A stretch of DNA of 46,496 nt from a virus (lineage: Duplodnaviria; Heunggongvirae; Uroviricota; Caudoviricetes), in IMG/VR virus record IMGVR_UViG_2630968543_000003; one strand, 5' to 3'. A program made the translations under genes and the position numbers. The notes below the pieces were generated by a model that saw nothing but the letters and a program-made list of their open reading frames with translations, had not been told where the DNA came from and ran no database searches. Shown in pieces: positions 1,650-8,494 of this stretch (position 1 is its first letter; each line of letters starts with the position of its first letter).

Positions 1650-1667
1650 GCCAACCTCATAAAACTT

Positions 1668-1802
1668 TCATCCACGGCAGTGGCACCACATTTCAAACAT
1701 TCGCTTCACAACTTCACGACAGTAGAAACCGTCAACATCTCGCGTCAGATCATAGCGATTGCCGTAACGCTGGTGGACCCATCGTTCAAATGCTTTATTC
1801 AT
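1668..1802 (-). CDS. small hypothetical protein (44 aa, MNKAFERWVHQRYGNRYDL...)
   Basis: Below the ORF-track size cutoff; ATG at 1802 with AAGGAAG RBS 7 nt upstream; follows the previous ORF within 4 nt. Confidence 0.3.
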   Translation of the reverse strand: MNKAFERWVHQRYGNRYDLTRDVDGFYCREVVKRMFEMWCHCRG

Positions 1803-1805
1803 TCT

Positions 1806-2048
1806 TTACTTCCTTTTCATGGCTCGTAATTTTTTCAGATGAGCTTCCTGCTCTGTTTCTGCCAGAATTTTGCGGTACTCCTGGTGGTCAATATGTTCGA
1901 ACAGGCTGTTGAACTCAGTGATGCGTACCCGCCCGGAGCGCCCGTCCATCCTCCGAAAGAATACCGAGTGAACAGTACTGCGAGTAATTTTTACCGGGTA
2001 GCCAGCACTATCGGTGTATATCTGCCCGCGTTGAATCAAAGCGAACAT
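1806..2048 (-). CDS. hypothetical early protein (start uncertain; track ORF runs to 2084 from a TTG)
   Basis: ORF-track frame 1806..2084; first ATG at 2048; no recognised family. Confidence 0.3.
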   Translation of the reverse strand: MFALIQRGQIYTDSAGYPVKITRSTVHSVFFRRMDGRSGRVRITEFNSLFEHIDHQEYRKILAETEQEAHLKKLRAMKRK

Positions 2049-2132
2049 GTGGTTATCCCCATCGACAAATCGAGAACACAACAAACGCTGCTGCGAATAC
2101 CACCCCCAGAGTTACGATTGCATCACGCCAGC

Positions 2133-2510
2133 TCATTGATTCACCTCCTGCGGCGGTTCTGGCAGCGGCATCCAGTGGGTTACCTCCTTGAGATACAGGT
2201 CTTCGCCACCACCGTCATCCCAAGTGGGCTTGCCATCATTAAACCAGTCGCCATATACGCCGACCTGAGTGTTGGGGATGCTTGGTGGGTAGTTGTTTTT
2301 AAAGTCAGCAGCTAACACATAGCATTGTCGCTCTCCCATTTCTGGCATTCGCTCACTACAGCTTATCCAACTATCCGGAGTTACCGGAGAGTTGCCAGCC
2401 TCATACGCCACACGCATCCAGTGCATAAGCGTTTCAGTGCTCACACAGCCGCAATCAACATCAATTTTGCCGTGCTGCTGTTCCAGCCATTGCTCAAGCG
2501 TAGTGCTCAT
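2133..2510 (-). CDS. DUF551-like phage protein
   Basis: 125 aa; C-terminal W..C.ERMPE...W...PLP pattern resembles DUF551 proteins of lambdoid early regions; ATG at 2510 overlaps the upstream stop (ATGA). Confidence 0.55.
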   Translation of the reverse strand: MSTTLEQWLEQQHGKIDVDCGCVSTETLMHWMRVAYEAGNSPVTPDSWISCSERMPEMGERQCYVLAADFKNNYPPSIPNTQVGVYGDWFNDGKPTWDDGGGEDLYLKEVTHWMPLPEPPQEVNQ

Positions 2511-2740
2511 TTTTCATCCCCCCGATGATGCCATCTGCATCGCATCTCATAACACCCCCACTCAACACGAAAACCACATAGCCTGTGCAGATCCACCCAC
2601 TTCTGCGCCATCGCTGGCGACGTGTAAATCACAGTGAATGCGTTATCTTCGTTGTCGATTTGCGTAAACGTCACTTTGTACAACAACCCACCGTCGACAC
2701 ATGCTGTGTTCAACGATTTATTGCTAATACCCTCAATCAT
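2507..2740 (-). CDS. hypothetical early protein (77 aa)
   Basis: ORF translationally coupled to its neighbours by ATGA overlaps at both ends. Confidence 0.4.
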   Translation of the reverse strand: MIEGISNKSLNTACVDGGLLYKVTFTQIDNEDNAFTVIYTSPAMAQKWVDLHRLCGFRVEWGCYEMRCRWHHRGDEK

Positions 2741-3102
2741 TCGTACTCAACCCCCGCTGTTTTGAATTTGATCCCCGCTGCCTGCAATGCGTGCTCGACG
2801 TCGAAGCGGTCCAGCCATCCACCAAAGTGGTGCGGCATCATTACCACCCGCTCACCGCTATTTATTGGGTGGCCCATACGGGGTTCGTAGCCGTCCGGTA
2901 ACTCGACTTCCCTCGCTTCCAGTTCTGCAATTCGGCACATAGCATCAATATTTGTGTCCTCCAGGCGCTTAATTTCATCCAGCAGCGCCAGTACCACCGA
3001 CGGTGTGACCTTCATCCGAAACGCCTGCAATTTTTGAGGCGTTGCCACTGTTTCAATTGCTACTGCTGCCTCACGCAGTGCCTGATAATCAATCCCGCTC
3101 AC
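2737..3102 (-). CDS. hypothetical early protein (121 aa, GTG start)
   Basis: ORF in the coupled leftward operon; only a GTG start is available; no confident family. Confidence 0.4.
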   Translation of the reverse strand: MSGIDYQALREAAVAIETVATPQKLQAFRMKVTPSVVLALLDEIKRLEDTNIDAMCRIAELEAREVELPDGYEPRMGHPINSGERVVMMPHHFGGWLDRFDVEHALQAAGIKFKTAGVEYE

Positions 3103-3322
3103 GCCCGACCTCTCCCTGTGCTGTTTTATATGCCCGCAACATATCGCGGGTTTTACCGGATAAAACCGACTTCATGAAAAACACACCACTGTGAGTTGCA
3201 ATAACGTCCGGCGTGCAAAGCAATGCAGCATCCACCACCCGGTTATGTTTACGAAATTCGAACACGGTGCAGGTGATCACGATGTTCGCTACGGCTCCGT
3301 AGTCCTGGTATTCGATTTTCAT
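3089..3322 (-). CDS. hypothetical early protein (77 aa)
   Basis: ATG at 3322 overlaps the upstream stop (ATGA). Confidence 0.35.
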   Translation of the reverse strand: MKIEYQDYGAVANIVITCTVFEFRKHNRVVDAALLCTPDVIATHSGVFFMKSVLSGKTRDMLRAYKTAQGEVGRERD

Positions 3323-3888
3323 TCCGGATGCTCCTGAGCCACGTTGAAATCGCCATGATCACGACAAGGCATCACAACAAATTCAGGATTGCCATACATT
3401 GAGTTGATGATGGAATCAAACTGAATTCTGACCGCTTGCCCGTCACCGGAGGGACGTAACTGGACGGGAATAAATTTACGCTCACGACCAAACATCTTCT
3501 CTGGATAACTCAGGTAACCCGCCTGGATCACCGGGTGTGTACAGAGGTCAAATTTTTTCGGAATGATGCGTTCCAAATCCGGAAAACAACCGTCCACCAA
3601 TTTAATGCCGGTAATGGACAGTCGGCGCTGAAACTGGTCGCGATGAACAGCGATCGGCTCTTTACTAAAAATCAGCTCTGTCGTTTCGGCTTTGGCCGGG
3701 ACGCCACCTTCGAACTGGACAATGATGTTTTTCTTCGTCCGGATGCCGTGAGTCATGCGCAGTGCCACGGAACCATTGGTTGCCTCAATATGTTTTGGCG
3801 TGATGTGAAGACCGTTCAGGTAATAACGAACGTCGTTTTTAGCAGCGCACACCAGAGCGGCGCGAATAAGTTTTGACTGGATGATCAT
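3319..3888 (-). CDS. DnaN-like protein (beta sliding clamp domain II-III homolog, 189 aa)
   Basis: Segments NDVRYYLNG, KLVDGCFPD..IPK and C-terminal VVMPCR align by eye with E. coli DnaN motifs QDVRYYLNG, KLVDGRFPDYRRVLPK and YVVMPMR; GGAGG RBS; ATG at 3888. Confidence 0.55.
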   Translation of the reverse strand: MIIQSKLIRAALVCAAKNDVRYYLNGLHITPKHIEATNGSVALRMTHGIRTKKNIIVQFEGGVPAKAETTELIFSKEPIAVHRDQFQRRLSITGIKLVDGCFPDLERIIPKKFDLCTHPVIQAGYLSYPEKMFGRERKFIPVQLRPSGDGQAVRIQFDSIINSMYGNPEFVVMPCRDHGDFNVAQEHPE

Positions 3889-4634
3889 GCTTTATCCTCC
3901 CATCCGATTACCTGGAAAAGCCCCATCTTCGGGTGATACCAGCGTGTGCCGCGTGGTTCAGCCTCTGACATCATTTGGTGGAATGCCGCCATAAATGTCT
4001 CAAGCTCGACGATAGCCCTGCGAGACAACAGACCGTCCGGAGTCATAAATTCGTGCGTGTCGGTAGGGATGTGGTAGGCGTTGACCAGATTCCGGCACTT
4101 GGCGTCACTCATTCCGCTTTTGGCTACCACCTGGCGGTAACCGACATATCCGGTGCGCATTGTGCCGCGTTTGATGTTCTCCACAGCTTTGGTGACCGTT
4201 TCGATCTTCTCTTCAACATGACTCAGGCGCTTCTGCTGGCGAACGGCATCGGCGGCCATTGCAGCGATCATCTCCATTTCCGTCAGCGGCGCGTGAGTTC
4301 GGAAATAGCTGTTAACCAGTTCGCGCTGAACCTGCCATGCAAGAGTATCGTTAAAAGGCTTCGTCAACATCAGGTAACCAGACTCGAAAAGAATGATCCC
4401 TTTGGCAGTTCGCGCGGCAAAGGCATCAGAAAGTGACTCCGTACGTATTACGTCCGCAGTCATTTCAAGAAAATCCACCCCTTCGATAAAGTGAGAACGG
4501 TTGCGGTTAAACGCAGCACGGGCGGTACCTTCCGGGCGCTGGTGGACGTCATCAATTATTGCAAATGTCACAACACGCTGACCGCGATATTCGATTACCG
4601 GAAACTGTTTGTTGTTGATGGTTACAATATTCAT
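3885..4634 (-). CDS. antirepressor-like protein (ORF6N / Bro-N type N-terminal domain)
   Basis: Chosen start is the internal ATG at 4634 (MNIVTINNKQFPV...) with GGAG RBS 6 nt upstream; track ORF extends to 4709; N-terminal region resembles phage antirepressor DNA-binding domains. Confidence 0.5.
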   Translation of the reverse strand: MNIVTINNKQFPVIEYRGQRVVTFAIIDDVHQRPEGTARAAFNRNRSHFIEGVDFLEMTADVIRTESLSDAFAARTAKGIILFESGYLMLTKPFNDTLAWQVQRELVNSYFRTHAPLTEMEMIAAMAADAVRQQKRLSHVEEKIETVTKAVENIKRGTMRTGYVGYRQVVAKSGMSDAKCRNLVNAYHIPTDTHEFMTPDGLLSRRAIVELETFMAAFHQMMSEAEPRGTRWYHPKMGLFQVIGWEDKA

Positions 4635-4677
4635 TTTTATCTCCAGACAGCCCGACGTGTAATACCGGGCATATGTA

Positions 4678-5505
4678 TTACTTAACCTGAATAAATGGTG
4701 TGTTGGCACCGCTGGTCATGTATTGCGGCAGTGTACCGTTCCACTTGTTGATGGCTTCCAGCTCCATAACACCGGGGTTCTGGCGCAGAGCTTCACCGCG
4801 TAAACGAATAGCATCGGCTTCGGCCTGGGCTTTTGTGCGAATCGCATCTGCCTGTCCGGCAGCTTCCGCGCGCAACATGTTGGCTTCCGCTTCGCGCTGT
4901 TTTACTTCCTGCTCGCGTTGCAGGGTTTTCTGGTTCGCCGTGACTTTGGCATTAATGCTGTCGATAACAGTAGGCGGGTACTCCGGCTTACCCACATATG
5001 AGAGGCTCATTACCTGAATACCGATGGGCGTCATTTCTTCCTGAATGTCTTTAAGAGCTGCATCCAGCAGCTCAGACTTGCCGCCGTCGATAAATTTGTC
5101 GGTGGTCATTTTGCTGGCCAGTCGGTTGAGTGCGTCGGCTATCTTCTGGCGCAGGTCGGTGTCGGTAATGTCGTCCACGCCTTTGCGGTAGGTCTGAAAG
5201 ACTGTGGTAACTTTGGATGGATCAACTTTGTAGGCCACGCCGATGTGATAGCCGATGGTTGTACCGTCACTCATCTGGAAACTGAATGGATCATCGTAGG
5301 TCTTCATCTGCTTAAAGGTCGGGAAGATGTAAACCTCAGTGTTCCATCCCGTCCAGTAGCGCCCAACACCGACCACTTCACCGACGCCTTTATCGTCGCC
5401 CAGTTTGTTTACTTTGATGCCCACATTACCAGGCTCAACGCGATCGCAACCGACAAGGCCAATGGTCGGCAGAACAAGGGCTAAAGCAAAAAGTAATTTT
5501 TTCAT
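4678..5505 (-). CDS. SPFH/band-7 (prohibitin-like) domain lipoprotein
   Basis: 275 aa; signal peptide with lipobox LVGC; SPFH-like core followed by an Ala/Glu/Arg-rich coiled-coil tail; AAGGA RBS; ATG at 5505. Confidence 0.75.
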   Translation of the reverse strand: MKKLLFALALVLPTIGLVGCDRVEPGNVGIKVNKLGDDKGVGEVVGVGRYWTGWNTEVYIFPTFKQMKTYDDPFSFQMSDGTTIGYHIGVAYKVDPSKVTTVFQTYRKGVDDITDTDLRQKIADALNRLASKMTTDKFIDGGKSELLDAALKDIQEEMTPIGIQVMSLSYVGKPEYPPTVIDSINAKVTANQKTLQREQEVKQREAEANMLRAEAAGQADAIRTKAQAEADAIRLRGEALRQNPGVMELEAINKWNGTLPQYMTSGANTPFIQVK

Positions 5506-5690
5506 CTTTTATCCTTAGAAAAAGAAAGACCCTTATAAATGGCATAAATGCAGGGCGGGGTCAGACACGCCAGAGCAAAGCCAGAAATCACTGCTACCGT
5601 ATCCTTCATTGATATGAGGGCCGGAACGATTAATCCGTAAATACATGTGATAATTGCCAGTGATATAACTATTCTGAAATAAATGTTCAT
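5502..5690 (-). CDS. small hydrophobic membrane protein (62 aa), partner of the SPFH lipoprotein
   Basis: Two predicted transmembrane segments; AGGAGG RBS; its stop overlaps the SPFH start (ATGA). Confidence 0.5.
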   Translation of the reverse strand: MNIYFRIVISLAIITCIYGLIVPALISMKDTVAVISGFALACLTPPCIYAIYKGLSFSKDKR

Positions 5691-5750
5691 GGTCCTCCTG
5701 ATGTATTCGGCTTGCCTTATTTAATTGCGTCATGGTTAATTTCGTTTACG

Positions 5751-6143
5751 TCAGAATGGTTTTGTTGCCATCAGTTCGTAATATCCGGCGCTCCATGTGT
5801 CATATTTTCTGAACCATTTTTCTGTATACTGTTTCCTGGCGATGAGTCTGCGCAGTCGTCTGATTGTTCGCTGGTGTGCGCGGGTATACTCTGTGGTTGA
5901 TTCTCCACGTTTCCATATCTCATTCCTGTTGAAGATAAAACGCTTGTCAGGATAGCGTTGTCGGAATCCTGAACGTTCAAAAGCGCGGGTGGTCATAAAG
6001 AAGGCCAGGTAACGAATTGCCGTTTTTCGAGTGAGGCATTTTTTTGTTCTTCCGTGGCGTGTTACAAAAAATAACGGGCCGACGGGTGTATCATGTTTCT
6101 GTAATGCCTGGTCAATGGCGCTGGCGGTGCGGTTGTCGATCAT
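5751..6143 (-). CDS. hypothetical basic protein (130 aa)
   Basis: ORF with ATG at 6143 overlapping the upstream stop; Arg/Lys-rich; no family recognised. Confidence 0.45.
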   Translation of the reverse strand: MIDNRTASAIDQALQKHDTPVGPLFFVTRHGRTKKCLTRKTAIRYLAFFMTTRAFERSGFRQRYPDKRFIFNRNEIWKRGESTTEYTRAHQRTIRRLRRLIARKQYTEKWFRKYDTWSAGYYELMATKPF

Positions 6144-6358
6144 TTCTTTATTTCTCCCGAATAACGTTCATGACTCATTACTTCCCAGTTCCGGCCGTCG
6201 TCTTTCGATAACAGCCGCCAGCGACGGTTAACCTTCAGACTGAGATATCCGGTGCGCTGTATCCGATGCGGAAATATCCGTCGGCATCGGTACAACAACA
6301 GGACCTGCAATGCCTGCCGGTGGATCCGCTCAGGAATGCGTGTTGCTGTTAATGCCAC
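6140..6358 (-). CDS. hypothetical protein (72 aa, GTG start)
   Basis: AGGAGG RBS 4 nt before the GTG at 6358; coupled to the downstream gene. Confidence 0.4.
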   Translation of the reverse strand: MALTATRIPERIHRQALQVLLLYRCRRIFPHRIQRTGYLSLKVNRRWRLLSKDDGRNWEVMSHERYSGEIKK

Positions 6359-6545
6359 CGGTTTCCTCCTGAGCAGGTGCTGTTATCTGATACCCCGCTC
6401 TTTCTGCCAGCCGTATGAATGTATCCATGCTGGCAATCAGCTCGCCATCGCGGACTTTGCAGACACCTGTGACTTGGCCATTTTCAATTGTCATAACGAT
6501 CTGCACTTTTTCGTGCACAACAGATACAGGGGATAAATTAGCCAT
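6330..6545 (-). CDS. hypothetical protein (71 aa)
   Basis: ATG at 6545 overlaps the upstream stop (TGATG). Confidence 0.4.
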   Translation of the reverse strand: MANLSPVSVVHEKVQIVMTIENGQVTGVCKVRDGELIASMDTFIRLAERAGYQITAPAQEETGGINSNTHS

Positions 6546-6904
6546 CAGTTAATTCCTCCGCTGATATATTTTTCTTTCGCGTAATCAATAACCTCTTGAA
6601 AAAGGTTGTCTATAATTAACTTTCCGGTTTCAGTCAGGTATTCAGTATGTTGATTAATCCCGATAGCATTCTGGTATGCAGTGTGGATTTCGGTTTCACC
6701 CTCCACCCGGCCCAATTCACCACGGGTAATACCTTCGAAGCGTAACAGCAACTGGTTTATAAACTGTTCAGTTATTTCTATGGTCGTAATGTTCCCATCC
6801 GGAAGGTCAACAATAAGCAGATTACCACCTGTTTTACGTTTTATTCGATGGAGTGCCGCAACAGCTATACGGCGACGATATGTATTAATGGGTTCATGTG
6901 TCAT
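6545..6904 (-). CDS. hypothetical protein (119 aa)
   Basis: ORF with ATG at 6904; no family recognised. Confidence 0.45.
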   Translation of the reverse strand: MTHEPINTYRRRIAVAALHRIKRKTGGNLLIVDLPDGNITTIEITEQFINQLLLRFEGITRGELGRVEGETEIHTAYQNAIGINQHTEYLTETGKLIIDNLFQEVIDYAKEKYISGGIN

Positions 6905-6907
6905 TTG

Positions 6908-7006
6908 TTATTTCCCGTATGCTTTTCTGAGAAACAGTATTGCAACTGACCAGTATCCTGCATTAGCCATTAATAATGCGGTTTTATAAGCACTTCTGTT
7001 TTTCAT
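6908..7006 (-). CDS. possible small protein (32 aa, MKNRSAYKTALLMANAGYWSVAILFLRKAYGK)
   Basis: Not in the ORF track; its TAA stop lies 3 nt before the next gene's ATG; GGTGGTGA sequence just upstream of its ATG. Confidence 0.25.
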   Translation of the reverse strand: MKNRSAYKTALLMANAGYWSVAILFLRKAYGK

Positions 7007-7088
7007 GCATCACCACCATTTTCAGGTTGTGGAAATTCCCGACCAGAGGCCGTTATGTTTTTATGGGTGATTGTTTATTGAGTTTTCT

Positions 7089-7280
7089 TTATTCGTTGCG
7101 CAGTGTGTCGATATACGCGTAAGCCATTTCACAGGTTTTATTCATGGAGCGAATGAGGCAACATAAATAATCGTCTGTCTCTCCTGAATCAGGCGAATTC
7201 TTAAATATAAATTCAAGCATGGATGTATTCTCTTTTATTTGTGCTGCCACTTCCTCAAGAATATTTAATGGAGTTATCAT
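7089..7280 (-). CDS. hypothetical small acidic protein (63 aa)
   Basis: AAGGAG RBS; ATG at 7280 overlaps the upstream stop. Confidence 0.4.
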   Translation of the reverse strand: MITPLNILEEVAAQIKENTSMLEFIFKNSPDSGETDDYLCCLIRSMNKTCEMAYAYIDTLRNE

Positions 7281-7468
7281 GTTCTTTGCTCCTTAAATGC
7301 ATCGCATGCGCTTCTGGCGTATTGTTGTGCCAGTAAAAAGATATCATCCGAAAGTTCATCACATTCTTCATCACCGGAAGCCGAAATGATTAACCCCGCT
7401 TCAAGCAGTACGGCAATGTGATGAAAAGCTGTTTCCGGTTCGTTGGTGAGGCCTTTGAACATTTTCAT
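7277..7468 (-). CDS. hypothetical small protein (63 aa, MKMFKGL...)
   Basis: Internal ATG at 7468 with AGGAGG RBS; overlaps the stop of the upstream HTH gene. Confidence 0.4.
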   Translation of the reverse strand: MKMFKGLTNEPETAFHHIAVLLEAGLIISASGDEECDELSDDIFLLAQQYARSACDAFKEQRT

Positions 7469-7469
7469 C

Positions 7470-7913
7470 TTATGCTTCCTCCTGATTTTGTTTATAAGCA
7501 CCAGTCAGTAACCACATTGGATCGCAGCCAAGAAGATTTGCCAATGGGATAATTTTGTCGCAAGTAGGAATTGCTGAGTCATTTTCCCATAACGAAACAG
7601 CCTGAACAGTCACTCCAGCACCGCTGGCAATATGATGTTGTTGAAGACTTGCTGATTTACGCGCTTGGAGAATACGTTGACCGAAAGATAATGCTGGGGA
7701 ATTACTAGCGCTAACTTCTTTGGTAAATAAATCAACATTAGCGCCGGGAGCGCTACTATCTGTAAAGGAATTCATAGTTGAAGAGATGATGTCTTGTGCA
7801 ACATCTAAGAGGTTGATGACGTCATGGTTTGAAGCGGTACCGCCTAATAGTGCCGCTTGAGCACAAATCAACAGAGAGTTTACGGAATAAGAGTCATGTT
7901 TATCATTTAACAT
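7470..7913 (-). CDS. HTH (XRE-family) transcriptional regulator with the HTH at the C-terminus
   Basis: C-terminal FGQRILQARKSASLQQHHIASGAGVTVQAVSLWENDSAIP matches the Cro/C1-type helix-turn-helix pattern; ATG at 7913 with GAGGTGA RBS 5 nt upstream. Confidence 0.55.
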   Translation of the reverse strand: MLNDKHDSYSVNSLLICAQAALLGGTASNHDVINLLDVAQDIISSTMNSFTDSSAPGANVDLFTKEVSASNSPALSFGQRILQARKSASLQQHHIASGAGVTVQAVSLWENDSAIPTCDKIIPLANLLGCDPMWLLTGAYKQNQEEA

Positions 7914-7914
7914 T

Positions 7915-7953
7915 ACATTCACCTCACTTGTTTTTACTTGCTGAGGTGAATGT
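7915..7953 (-). promoter_or_regulatory. perfect 12-bp inverted repeat (ACATTCACCTCA, 15-nt spacer, TGAGGTGAATGT) overlapping the RBS of the HTH gene
   Basis: Arms at 7915-7926 and 7942-7953 are exact reverse complements; on the minus-strand mRNA the downstream arm contains the GAGGTGA Shine-Dalgarno of the ATG at 7913. Confidence 0.45.
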
Positions 7954-8025
7954 AGCGCTATGCGTTATTCTTGACAATAGCAAAATGCTAATATTTGCTG
8001 TTTTTTTTATAGTGCGTTGTATTTA

Positions 8026-8481
8026 TTATTCATTTTCGTCTTTGTCGATCGGCATTCTTGATGCTTTAACAGCCATTAGCTCATCAAGTAGTTTGTCAAA
8101 ATTACGTTTCTTTTCAGATAACTCACTGATTATCCTGTCTTTTTCGCTTTCAGGCATTTGTCTGAATAACTCAATAAGTCGAGTCTCTCTTTTAGTTAGT
8201 TGCTGTTCATCAATAGTGGTCTCACCAGTCTTTTCCCTCATTTTAGCTAGATGCCATGGGGAATCCAGCAATGAGTGGGGGATGTCAAACCATCCTTCTG
8301 ATAGGCTCAGTCGCCCCTCGAGTTTTCTAGCGAGAGCAGTTCCCATATTTCTGCGCTTAGTCATTATTTGGCTTATAAGTGAGGGTGATATCTCACATTT
8401 TAACGCCAGATCTGTCTGGGTTAAGCCGCTGCGTTGGATTACCGTCTGTAGATTTTTTAAGCGAATATCTTTGATTTCCAT
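8026..8481 (-). CDS. prophage repressor, RacR/CI-like, HTH only (no S24 peptidase domain)
   Basis: N-terminal HTH (LTQTDLALKCEISPSLISQIMTKRR); start taken as the only in-frame ATG at 8481 (track ORF extends to a TTG at 8568); divergent from a Cro-like gene across an operator-rich gap. Confidence 0.6.
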   Translation of the reverse strand: MEIKDIRLKNLQTVIQRSGLTQTDLALKCEISPSLISQIMTKRRNMGTALARKLEGRLSLSEGWFDIPHSLLDSPWHLAKMREKTGETTIDEQQLTKRETRLIELFRQMPESEKDRIISELSEKKRNFDKLLDELMAVKASRMPIDKDENE

Positions 8482-8494
8482 GCTTGTCTCATTG

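Follow-up and report, generated by a model that had tools for sequence, protein, structure and literature searches.

The window analyzed here, a 46,496-nucleotide (nt) stretch of DNA held as IMG/VR virus record IMGVR_UViG_2630968543_000003, is a lambdoid, phiP27-like prophage of Escherichia coli. On its minus strand, at positions 4678 to 5690, it carries a conserved two-gene membrane cassette encoding a 62-amino-acid (aa) two-helix protein and a 275-aa SPFH/band-7 lipoprotein. The occurrence of the two proteins side by side across phyla and as natural fusions supports the view that they are true functional partners. The reading we favor, with a probability of roughly 55%, is that the SPFH subunits form a ring or cage docked on the two-helix partner, which serves to manage the host inner membrane during lytic growth. 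SPFH proteins, including stomatin, prohibitin, and flotillin as well as HflK/C, are now known to build membrane cages; to our knowledge, the function of most bacterial SPFH proteins is unclear.

The gene encoding the SPFH lipoprotein precursor (4678..5505, minus strand) corresponds to the RefSeq "SPFH domain-containing protein" WP_000734576.1, and its product matches PHROG 200 ("lipoprotein") over residues 1 to 274 (E value, 9.7e-115). The N terminus, MKKLLFALALVLPTIGLVGC followed directly by DRVEPG, is a classical signal peptide, consisting of MKK, a hydrophobic stretch, and then LVGC, which fits the lipobox pattern [LVI][ASTVI][GAS]C. Signal peptide and lipobox together occupy residues 1 to 20 (5446..5505, minus strand), with the codon for Cys20 at 5446-5448 and that for Asp21, the +2 residue, at 5443-5445. 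Cys20 is invariant across 49 diverse homologues, and the lipobox pattern is present in 109 of 150 family representatives. Among the 103 enterobacterial homologues having a lipobox, 99 carry Asp at +2, which is an established Lol-sorting signal for inner-membrane retention in E. coli.

The lipobox is followed by an SPFH (Band_7) domain at residues 22 to 208 (4882..5442, minus strand), as delimited by the Pfam envelope and by the strands and helices of the structural model. The match to PF01145 spans profile positions 2 to 176 of 176 at an E value of 8e-31 (107.9 bits, versus a cutoff of 23.6). An AlphaFold monomer model based on an 80-sequence alignment reached a pLDDT of 80.6; an earlier run with a shallow alignment had modeled the N-terminal SPFH region poorly (pLDDT, 66.9). 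The model places, in order, the signal helix, the SPFH alpha/beta domain, a single 65-residue helix, a short helix, and a low-confidence C terminus. The 65-residue helix (residues 178 to 242; 4780..4974, minus strand) is rich in Ala and Glu and would be the counterpart of the coiled-coil wall element in SPFH cages. Next comes a conserved KWNGxLP...PF segment (residues 254 to 271), in which W255 and P260 do not vary among 80 sequences and G257, P270, and F271 hardly do. A C terminus that is modeled with low confidence and yet conserved at these five positions is compatible with a cap formed between subunits. The only relatives with solved structures that were found by sequence were HflK (E value, 2e-4) and prohibitins, both matching in the helix region; all of these assemble into cages or rings, and the matches single out no subfamily. 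Prohibitin and erlin cages belong to eukaryotic organelles, are anchored by transmembrane helices, and share 16 to 17% identity with the window protein; there is no evolutionary closeness beyond the superfamily.

The partner gene (5502..5690, minus strand) lies immediately upstream and encodes a predicted inner-membrane protein with both termini on the cytoplasmic side, as judged from the open reading frame (ORF), its PHROG match, hydropathy, fused homologues, and a family profile. Its 62 residues comprise two hydrophobic segments (approximately residues 4 to 27 and 32 to 53) separated by the four-residue turn MKDT and followed by the basic tail KGLSFSKDKR. Residues 1 to 61 match PHROG 1130 ("membrane protein") with an E value of 1.5e-23, and Pfam returned no family for this protein at an E value of ≤1. 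The turn motif is conserved across the family as P-x-L-I-S-x-x-D/S-T, and the most conserved stretch of the protein, G-x-x-G-P-x-L-I-S-A-x-S-T-x-A-V-x-x-G-L, runs from the last part of helix 1 through the periplasmic turn into the beginning of helix 2, the sole region of the partner within reach of a periplasmic protein.

The two genes share an ATGA stop/start overlap at 5502-5505 (TCAT on the plus strand), an arrangement expected to couple their translation. The SPFH gene has an AAGGA Shine-Dalgarno sequence inside the end of the partner gene (5512-5516, minus strand), 6 nt before its ATG, while the partner gene is preceded by an AGGAGG sequence (5694-5699, minus strand) with a spacer of only 3 nt (ACC). 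The preliminary description of this stretch had been made by reading the DNA, and its account of the pair was borne out: the lipoprotein with its LVGC lipobox, the SPFH-like domain (here by a profile search), the coiled-coil tail, the small coupled membrane protein, and the ribosome-binding site of the latter were all recovered, the last with the short spacer just noted. The same 4-bp overlap occurs in P88 (gp11/gp12), in the N4-like phage KpCHEMY26 (gp28/gp29), and in phiE125 (gp44/gp43). Both ORFs are far beyond chance, as each matches a phage protein family and each is under purifying selection in comparison with phiP27. The ratio of nonsynonymous to synonymous substitutions (dN/dS) is 0.035 for the SPFH gene, indicating strong purifying selection, and 0.30 for the partner gene, a weaker but clear constraint. 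The value for the SPFH gene suits a protein in contact with a conserved host feature better than one engaged in an arms race.

The association of the two genes extends well beyond this prophage. A profile of the two-helix core was run at an E value of <1e-3 on 13,017 stop-to-stop segments from both strands of 80 diverse genome loci, a sample drawn with a single search pattern from a 12-sequence alignment and biased towards Dyella. Significant matches were obtained in approximately 55 of the 80 loci, all of them 18 to 125 nt upstream of the SPFH match and on the same strand, and none of the 13,017 segments gave a match away from an SPFH gene. In the window, the profile matched once. With it, the partner was also located beside the SPFH gene in phiP27, P88, RCS47, and KpCHEMY26, and two small genes upstream of that gene in PVP-SE1 and the LUZ24-like phage Ab22. 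In the phiP27 reference, the partner gene (locus L002, 3304-3492), upstream of L05, is unannotated.

Approximately 19 of the 150 best representatives (at 50% identity) are fusions of 320 to 400 aa, in which a two-helix segment that aligns with the 62-aa protein of the window stands N-terminal to the signal peptide and lipobox. Fused homologues such as P0124, P0142, P0311, and P0363, and those at loci L165 (8001-9065) and L167 (8001-9107), contain the partner, a basic linker, the signal-peptide core, and an intact lipobox Cys in one polypeptide. Because the basic linker precedes the signal-peptide core, the C terminus of the partner is predicted to be cytoplasmic and the SPFH domain to lie outside. 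The lipobox persists inside the fused precursors, so that cleavage by signal peptidase II would yield the two products made by the separate genes; if Lgt and LspA do act there, a lipoprotein would arise by way of a polyprotein, an unusual route. Together, Asp at +2 in the enterobacterial homologues and an inner-membrane partner that can be fused to the SPFH protein point to an SPFH domain on the periplasmic face of the inner membrane.

The cassette also behaves as a unit in phage mosaicism. By megablast and blastn, a segment from 4665 to 5681-5694 (minus strand) that holds the two genes only, without flanks, was the sole part of the window in common with phiP27 and Stx2 phages, at approximately 92% identity, and the homology with phiP27 ends at the borders of the pair. 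No promoter- or terminator-like site flanking the pair was found in a scan with consensus patterns, in which the nearest leftward promoter-like site upstream was at 6904-6875. In the window, the pair lies between the integrase and excisionase genes on one side and a repressor-like gene on the other; as all ORFs from the switch region to the integrase run leftward with short or overlapping junctions, its assignment to an early-left operon, also made in the preliminary description, is correct. A candidate early-left promoter, TTGTCA-17-TACATT (7977-7949, minus strand), was identified by the consensus scan and the gene layout in the gap that separates the repressor-like gene from the first leftward gene, and is likely the source of a transcript that would read through the pair. 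In the P2-like phage P88, gp11 and gp12 lie inside the early operon that runs from cox to replication gene A. In the P1-like phage-plasmid RCS47, an unannotated two-helix ORF of 78 aa stands ahead of the SPFH gene, and the pair occupies the place of tciABC in canonical P1, inside the C1-controlled ban operon. With these placements, three unrelated temperate architectures (phiP27-like, P88, and RCS47) carry the pair in repressor-controlled lytic operons. The P1 genes tciA-tciB-tciC are TerB-like and labeled "tellurite/colicin resistance," and the comparison of RCS47 (L004, 4775-5011) with P1 (L175, 14234-14930) looks like the exchange of one membrane-stress cargo for another.

The family is common among phages. 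An exhaustive HMMER search gave 3,008 relatives of the SPFH protein at an E value of ≤1e-3, of which 227 were below 1e-30, and most relatives are 270 to 300 aa long with a lipobox. By tblastn, the family is present in 391 of 50,697 phage records (377 at ≥80% coverage). Temperate carriers include phiP27, Stx2 phages, P88, P1-like phages, and the Burkholderia phages phiE125 and phi644-2. Among the virulent carriers are N4-like Schitoviridae, rV5/PVP-SE1-like myoviruses, LUZ24-like podoviruses, Erwinia phiEa104-like phages, crAss-like phages, Lak megaphages, and Caulobacter phiCbK-like phages, and one haloarchaeal virus also carries the gene. In virulent N4-like, rV5-like, and LUZ24-like phages, the pair is found among early or middle genes: in KpCHEMY26 with the RNA polymerase II genes on one side and the genes for dUTPase and replication on the other, and in Ab22 in the early region. 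A fused form in a Rhodopseudomonas palustris prophage lies in an early operon, beside the integrase gene and downstream of an S24 repressor gene, and fused forms were also found on 71.7-kb phage-like contigs. The pairs of PHROG 200 and PHROG 1130 in phiP27 (L05), P88 (gp12/gp11), KpCHEMY26 (gp29/gp28), PVP-SE1 (gp117/gp115), and phiE125 (gp43) belong to the same families as the pair in the window, share its gene order and, in many cases, its 4-bp overlap, and do not differ from it in kind. Both PHROGs are annotation bins to which no function is assigned, and RCS47, like phiP27, lacks an annotation of the small gene. In many records, the SPFH genes are named "serine protease" or "transposase fusion protein," which look like annotation errors.

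Among complete E. coli genomes, a copy was detected in 542 of 5,426 (approximately 10%), at 429 places on chromosomes and 198 on plasmids; copies on viral contigs were 97 to 100% identical. The family is widespread in soil bacteria as well as in environmental virulent phages. In approximately 27 Dyella species (loci L087-L131 and L162), the pair occupies one syntenic chromosomal site, flanked on one side by nrdBA and on the other by a divergent gene for a BlaR1-like M56 peptidase together with MacB-type permeases. The copies of Leptospira and Saprospirales are found among ordinary chromosomal genes, outside prophages and without a common neighbor. SPFH proteins often pair with membrane proteases; the M56 neighbor of Dyella is not kept in other genera, and as it is absent in Leptospira and Saprospirales, it was rejected as a general clue to function.

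In the mechanism that we favor, the cassette would be a conserved two-gene membrane unit that lacks a promoter of its own and is transcribed with the repressor-controlled early-left transcript, so that it would act in lytic development or induction and not in the quiescent lysogen. The partner would form an inner-membrane hairpin with both ends in the cytoplasm, of which only the conserved turn reaches the periplasm. The SPFH protein would be held in the inner membrane by its +2 Asp, with the SPFH domain, long helix, and C-terminal segment facing the periplasm as in HflK/C. Its subunits most likely form a ring or cage on the outer leaflet of the inner membrane that fences a membrane patch, as do its relatives of solved structure, HflK/C, prohibitin, erlin, stomatin, and QmcA. 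The partner would then provide a transmembrane dock, either as the "fence" that a lipid-anchored SPFH protein is missing or as an enclosed client. Such an assembly would most likely serve to manage the inner membrane of the infected host, for instance by stabilizing it, insulating it, or controlling a membrane enzyme.

Several observations weigh against this reading. Topology, lipidation, the oligomeric cage, docking on the partner, timing, and physiological role are all features that we infer, and "membrane management" names no specific mechanism and no target. The +2 residue is variable outside Enterobacterales, as is expected where sorting rules differ, and Arg at +3, as found here, may weaken retention by Asp at +2 according to Lol-avoidance studies in E. 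coli. Consensus patterns may miss weak or non-sigma-70 promoters, so that expression in the lysogen is possible. The chromosomal copies have no conserved neighbor except the partner. Finally, no functional study of phage SPFH proteins, of their role in defense, or of their role in exclusion was found in the literature, in which genome papers offer speculation only.

Superinfection exclusion or abortive infection is possible but unlikely. Here, a periplasmic SPFH assembly and its partner would block DNA entry, or the partner would be a membrane-damaging effector restrained by the cage. The pair lies among accessory early-left genes and acts, by prediction, at the inner membrane and periplasm, which is where T4 Imm/Sp and P22 SieA block DNA entry. 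Its horizontal movement between unrelated phage types and its presence in about a tenth of complete E. coli genomes also agree with a role in exclusion, and carriage by virulent phages is in keeping with exclusion that operates in the lytic cycle, as it does in T4. T4 Imm/Sp, P22 SieA, HK97 gp15, and the lipoproteins Llp and Cor are small phage envelope proteins, some of them lipoproteins, encoded among accessory genes. However, their likeness to the pair is one of location only, as they have no SPFH domain and no relation in sequence or fold to either protein was found. A defense or exclusion role had been raised in the preliminary description, and no positive evidence for it emerged: PADLOC-DB 2.0 (2023 library) gave no match at an E value of ≤1 for the pair or for three neighboring proteins, and no supporting literature was found. 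Furthermore, with no promoter of its own detected and a place in repressor-controlled operons, the pair is probably silent in lysogens. The low dN/dS of the SPFH gene is unlike that of typical fast-evolving exclusion genes, and in Dyella the pair shows synteny and vertical inheritance, and in Leptospira and Saprospirales it is chromosomal and lies outside prophages. A lytic-cycle membrane function thus fits better than prophage-expressed defense, given the lack of a detected promoter or terminator, the repressor-controlled operons, the virulent carriers, and the Dyella synteny; the strong conservation and the negative PADLOC result likewise argue against a defense gene of the resting prophage. 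A bolder version of the favored reading strikes us as improbable: that the pair is a widespread, unrecognized phage device in which a lipid-anchored SPFH cage on the periplasmic face, seated on its two-helix partner, would seal or insulate the inner membrane early in infection, for example, by blocking entry of a competitor genome in the manner of T4 Imm/Sp or by capturing an enzyme of the host membrane such as FtsH.

Distinctly less probable is a mimic of HflK/C that would modulate FtsH by caging, displacing, or titrating it from the periplasm, and so stabilize or destabilize phage regulators, tilting the choice between lysis and lysogeny or shielding phage membrane proteins. The likeness to HflK/C is real in several respects: the proteins share the SPFH fold, a long coiled-coil helix, and a C-terminal segment, the bulk of each is predicted or placed on the periplasmic face of the inner membrane, and HflK is the best sequence match among solved structures. 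The weak best hits in NCBIfam are likewise HflC and HflK. The early-left operon of lambda encodes the FtsH inhibitor CIII, and lambda CII/CIII provide a precedent for regulators of this kind. FtsH modulation has been proposed, speculatively, for phage SPFH genes (PMC10269572, PMC4936722). However, the scores were 23.4 bits for HflK (TIGR01933; cutoff, 159.4) and 25.4 bits for HflC (TIGR01932; cutoff, 134.4), so far below the cutoffs that the window protein is not an HflK/C orthologue, and by structural comparison erlin and prohibitin resemble it at least as closely as HflK/C does. At 11 to 18% identity, it is a single 275-aa SPFH protein rather than a K/C hetero-pair, it is anchored by a lipobox Cys instead of the N-terminal transmembrane helix of HflK/C, and it comes with a two-helix partner of its own. 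A connection to FtsH is not apparent, nor was an FtsH-related gene linked to the pair in any context examined, and many carriers are strictly virulent and face no lysogeny decision.

Much less plausible still is a lysogenic-conversion or virulence lipoprotein that would be expressed in the lysogen, exported in vesicles, and act on an animal host, as described for Pasteurella multocida PM0222, to which the window protein is likened by description only. PM0222 is a prophage-borne, HflK/C-like TLR1/2 agonist; this SPFH protein of 25 to 35 kDa, encoded on a prophage island, is found in outer-membrane vesicles, and its deletion attenuates virulence in mice (PMC9872710). The window protein is predicted to be a triacylatable lipoprotein and is carried by E. 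coli from humans, but its +2 Asp predicts inner-membrane retention and not vesicle export, no promoter of its own was detected, and the family abounds in environmental virulent phages and soil bacteria. Least credible of all is a canonical SPFH-NfeD operon of the QmcA-YbbJ or stomatin/NfeD type carried by the phage. The preliminary description had likened the pair to such modules, and the part of that comparison which stands is the coupling of an SPFH gene and a membrane-protein gene in one operon; membership in the family is refuted, since the partner has no NfeD or other Pfam match and its 62 residues leave no room for an OB-fold or protease domain. Moreover, the partner comes first in the gene order, has a distinct motif, and, unlike the partner in stomatin-NfeD operons, including the archaeal ones, can be fused N-terminally to the SPFH protein, which is itself an exported periplasmic lipoprotein, whereas QmcA faces the cytoplasm.

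The surroundings of the cassette in the window are those of a mosaic lambdoid left arm. The integrase (75-1361) and excisionase (1395-1649) genes, both on the minus strand, mark its end. A gene for a helix-turn-helix (HTH) protein (7470-7922) and the HTH gene of repressor type (8026-8568) also run leftward, and a cro-like HTH gene (8575-8820) diverges from them. Positions 1654 to 7552 are 99.5% identical to a prophage of E. coli FDAARGOS_1283, in which RefSeq names the pair "SPFH domain-containing protein" and "hypothetical protein." Only this segment and 8975-13160 match that prophage, at approximately 99%; the integrase/attachment end (1-1654) and the immunity region (7552-8975) differ. The same left arm with a different integrase and repressor is typical of lambdoid mosaicism.

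Directly downstream of the SPFH gene, in the same operon, is an ORF6N/anti-repressor-like gene (3885-4709, minus strand; RefSeq start near 4634) that matches Pfam ORF6N (E value, 1e-12) and the anti-repressor family PHROG 1726. It is followed by a gene for a 189-aa protein (3319-3888, minus strand) with a weak match to the central domain of the DNA polymerase III beta subunit (sliding clamp) and weak matches to PHROG "processivity factor" families; the fused SPFH gene of the R. palustris prophage is closely preceded by a full-length DNA_pol3_beta gene (L165, 5597-6763). On the other side of the pair, ORF 5751-6143 encodes a 130-aa protein of PHROG 1886, of unknown function. Its start is overlapped by a 72-aa ORF (6140-6358, minus strand) that RefSeq names "ParE family toxin-like protein," for which Pfam, NCBIfam, and PADLOC gave no match and beside which an obvious antitoxin is absent. 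Further along, the late-regulatory region contains three phage tRNA genes (Met-CAT, Arg-TCG, and Arg-TCT; 15641-15892, plus strand), while the FDAARGOS_1283 prophage is annotated with only two tRNA-Arg genes.

Parts of this picture are already known, as both genes have been binned in annotation resources and phage SPFH lipoprotein genes have been noted in genome papers. Several such papers mention "SPFH/band 7 lipoprotein" genes in phages, and why phages carry SPFH genes has been stated to be unclear (PMC13239085). For the conserved two-helix partner, its fusion forms, and the early-operon placement, no description was found in the literature. The system appears to be an SPFH scaffold with a lipid anchor, a periplasmic orientation, and a partner that is not of the NfeD type. 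The window offers a compact E. coli representative, amenable to genetics, of a family found in approximately 390 sequenced phages, both temperate and virulent, and the analysis defines its obligatory partner, likely topology, and likely time of expression. With these in hand, the question of why phages encode SPFH proteins can be reduced to simple experiments. If the pair proves to be an exclusion or protease-capture device, it would represent a new class of mechanism; if it only stabilizes the membrane, this would still explain a common phage gene.

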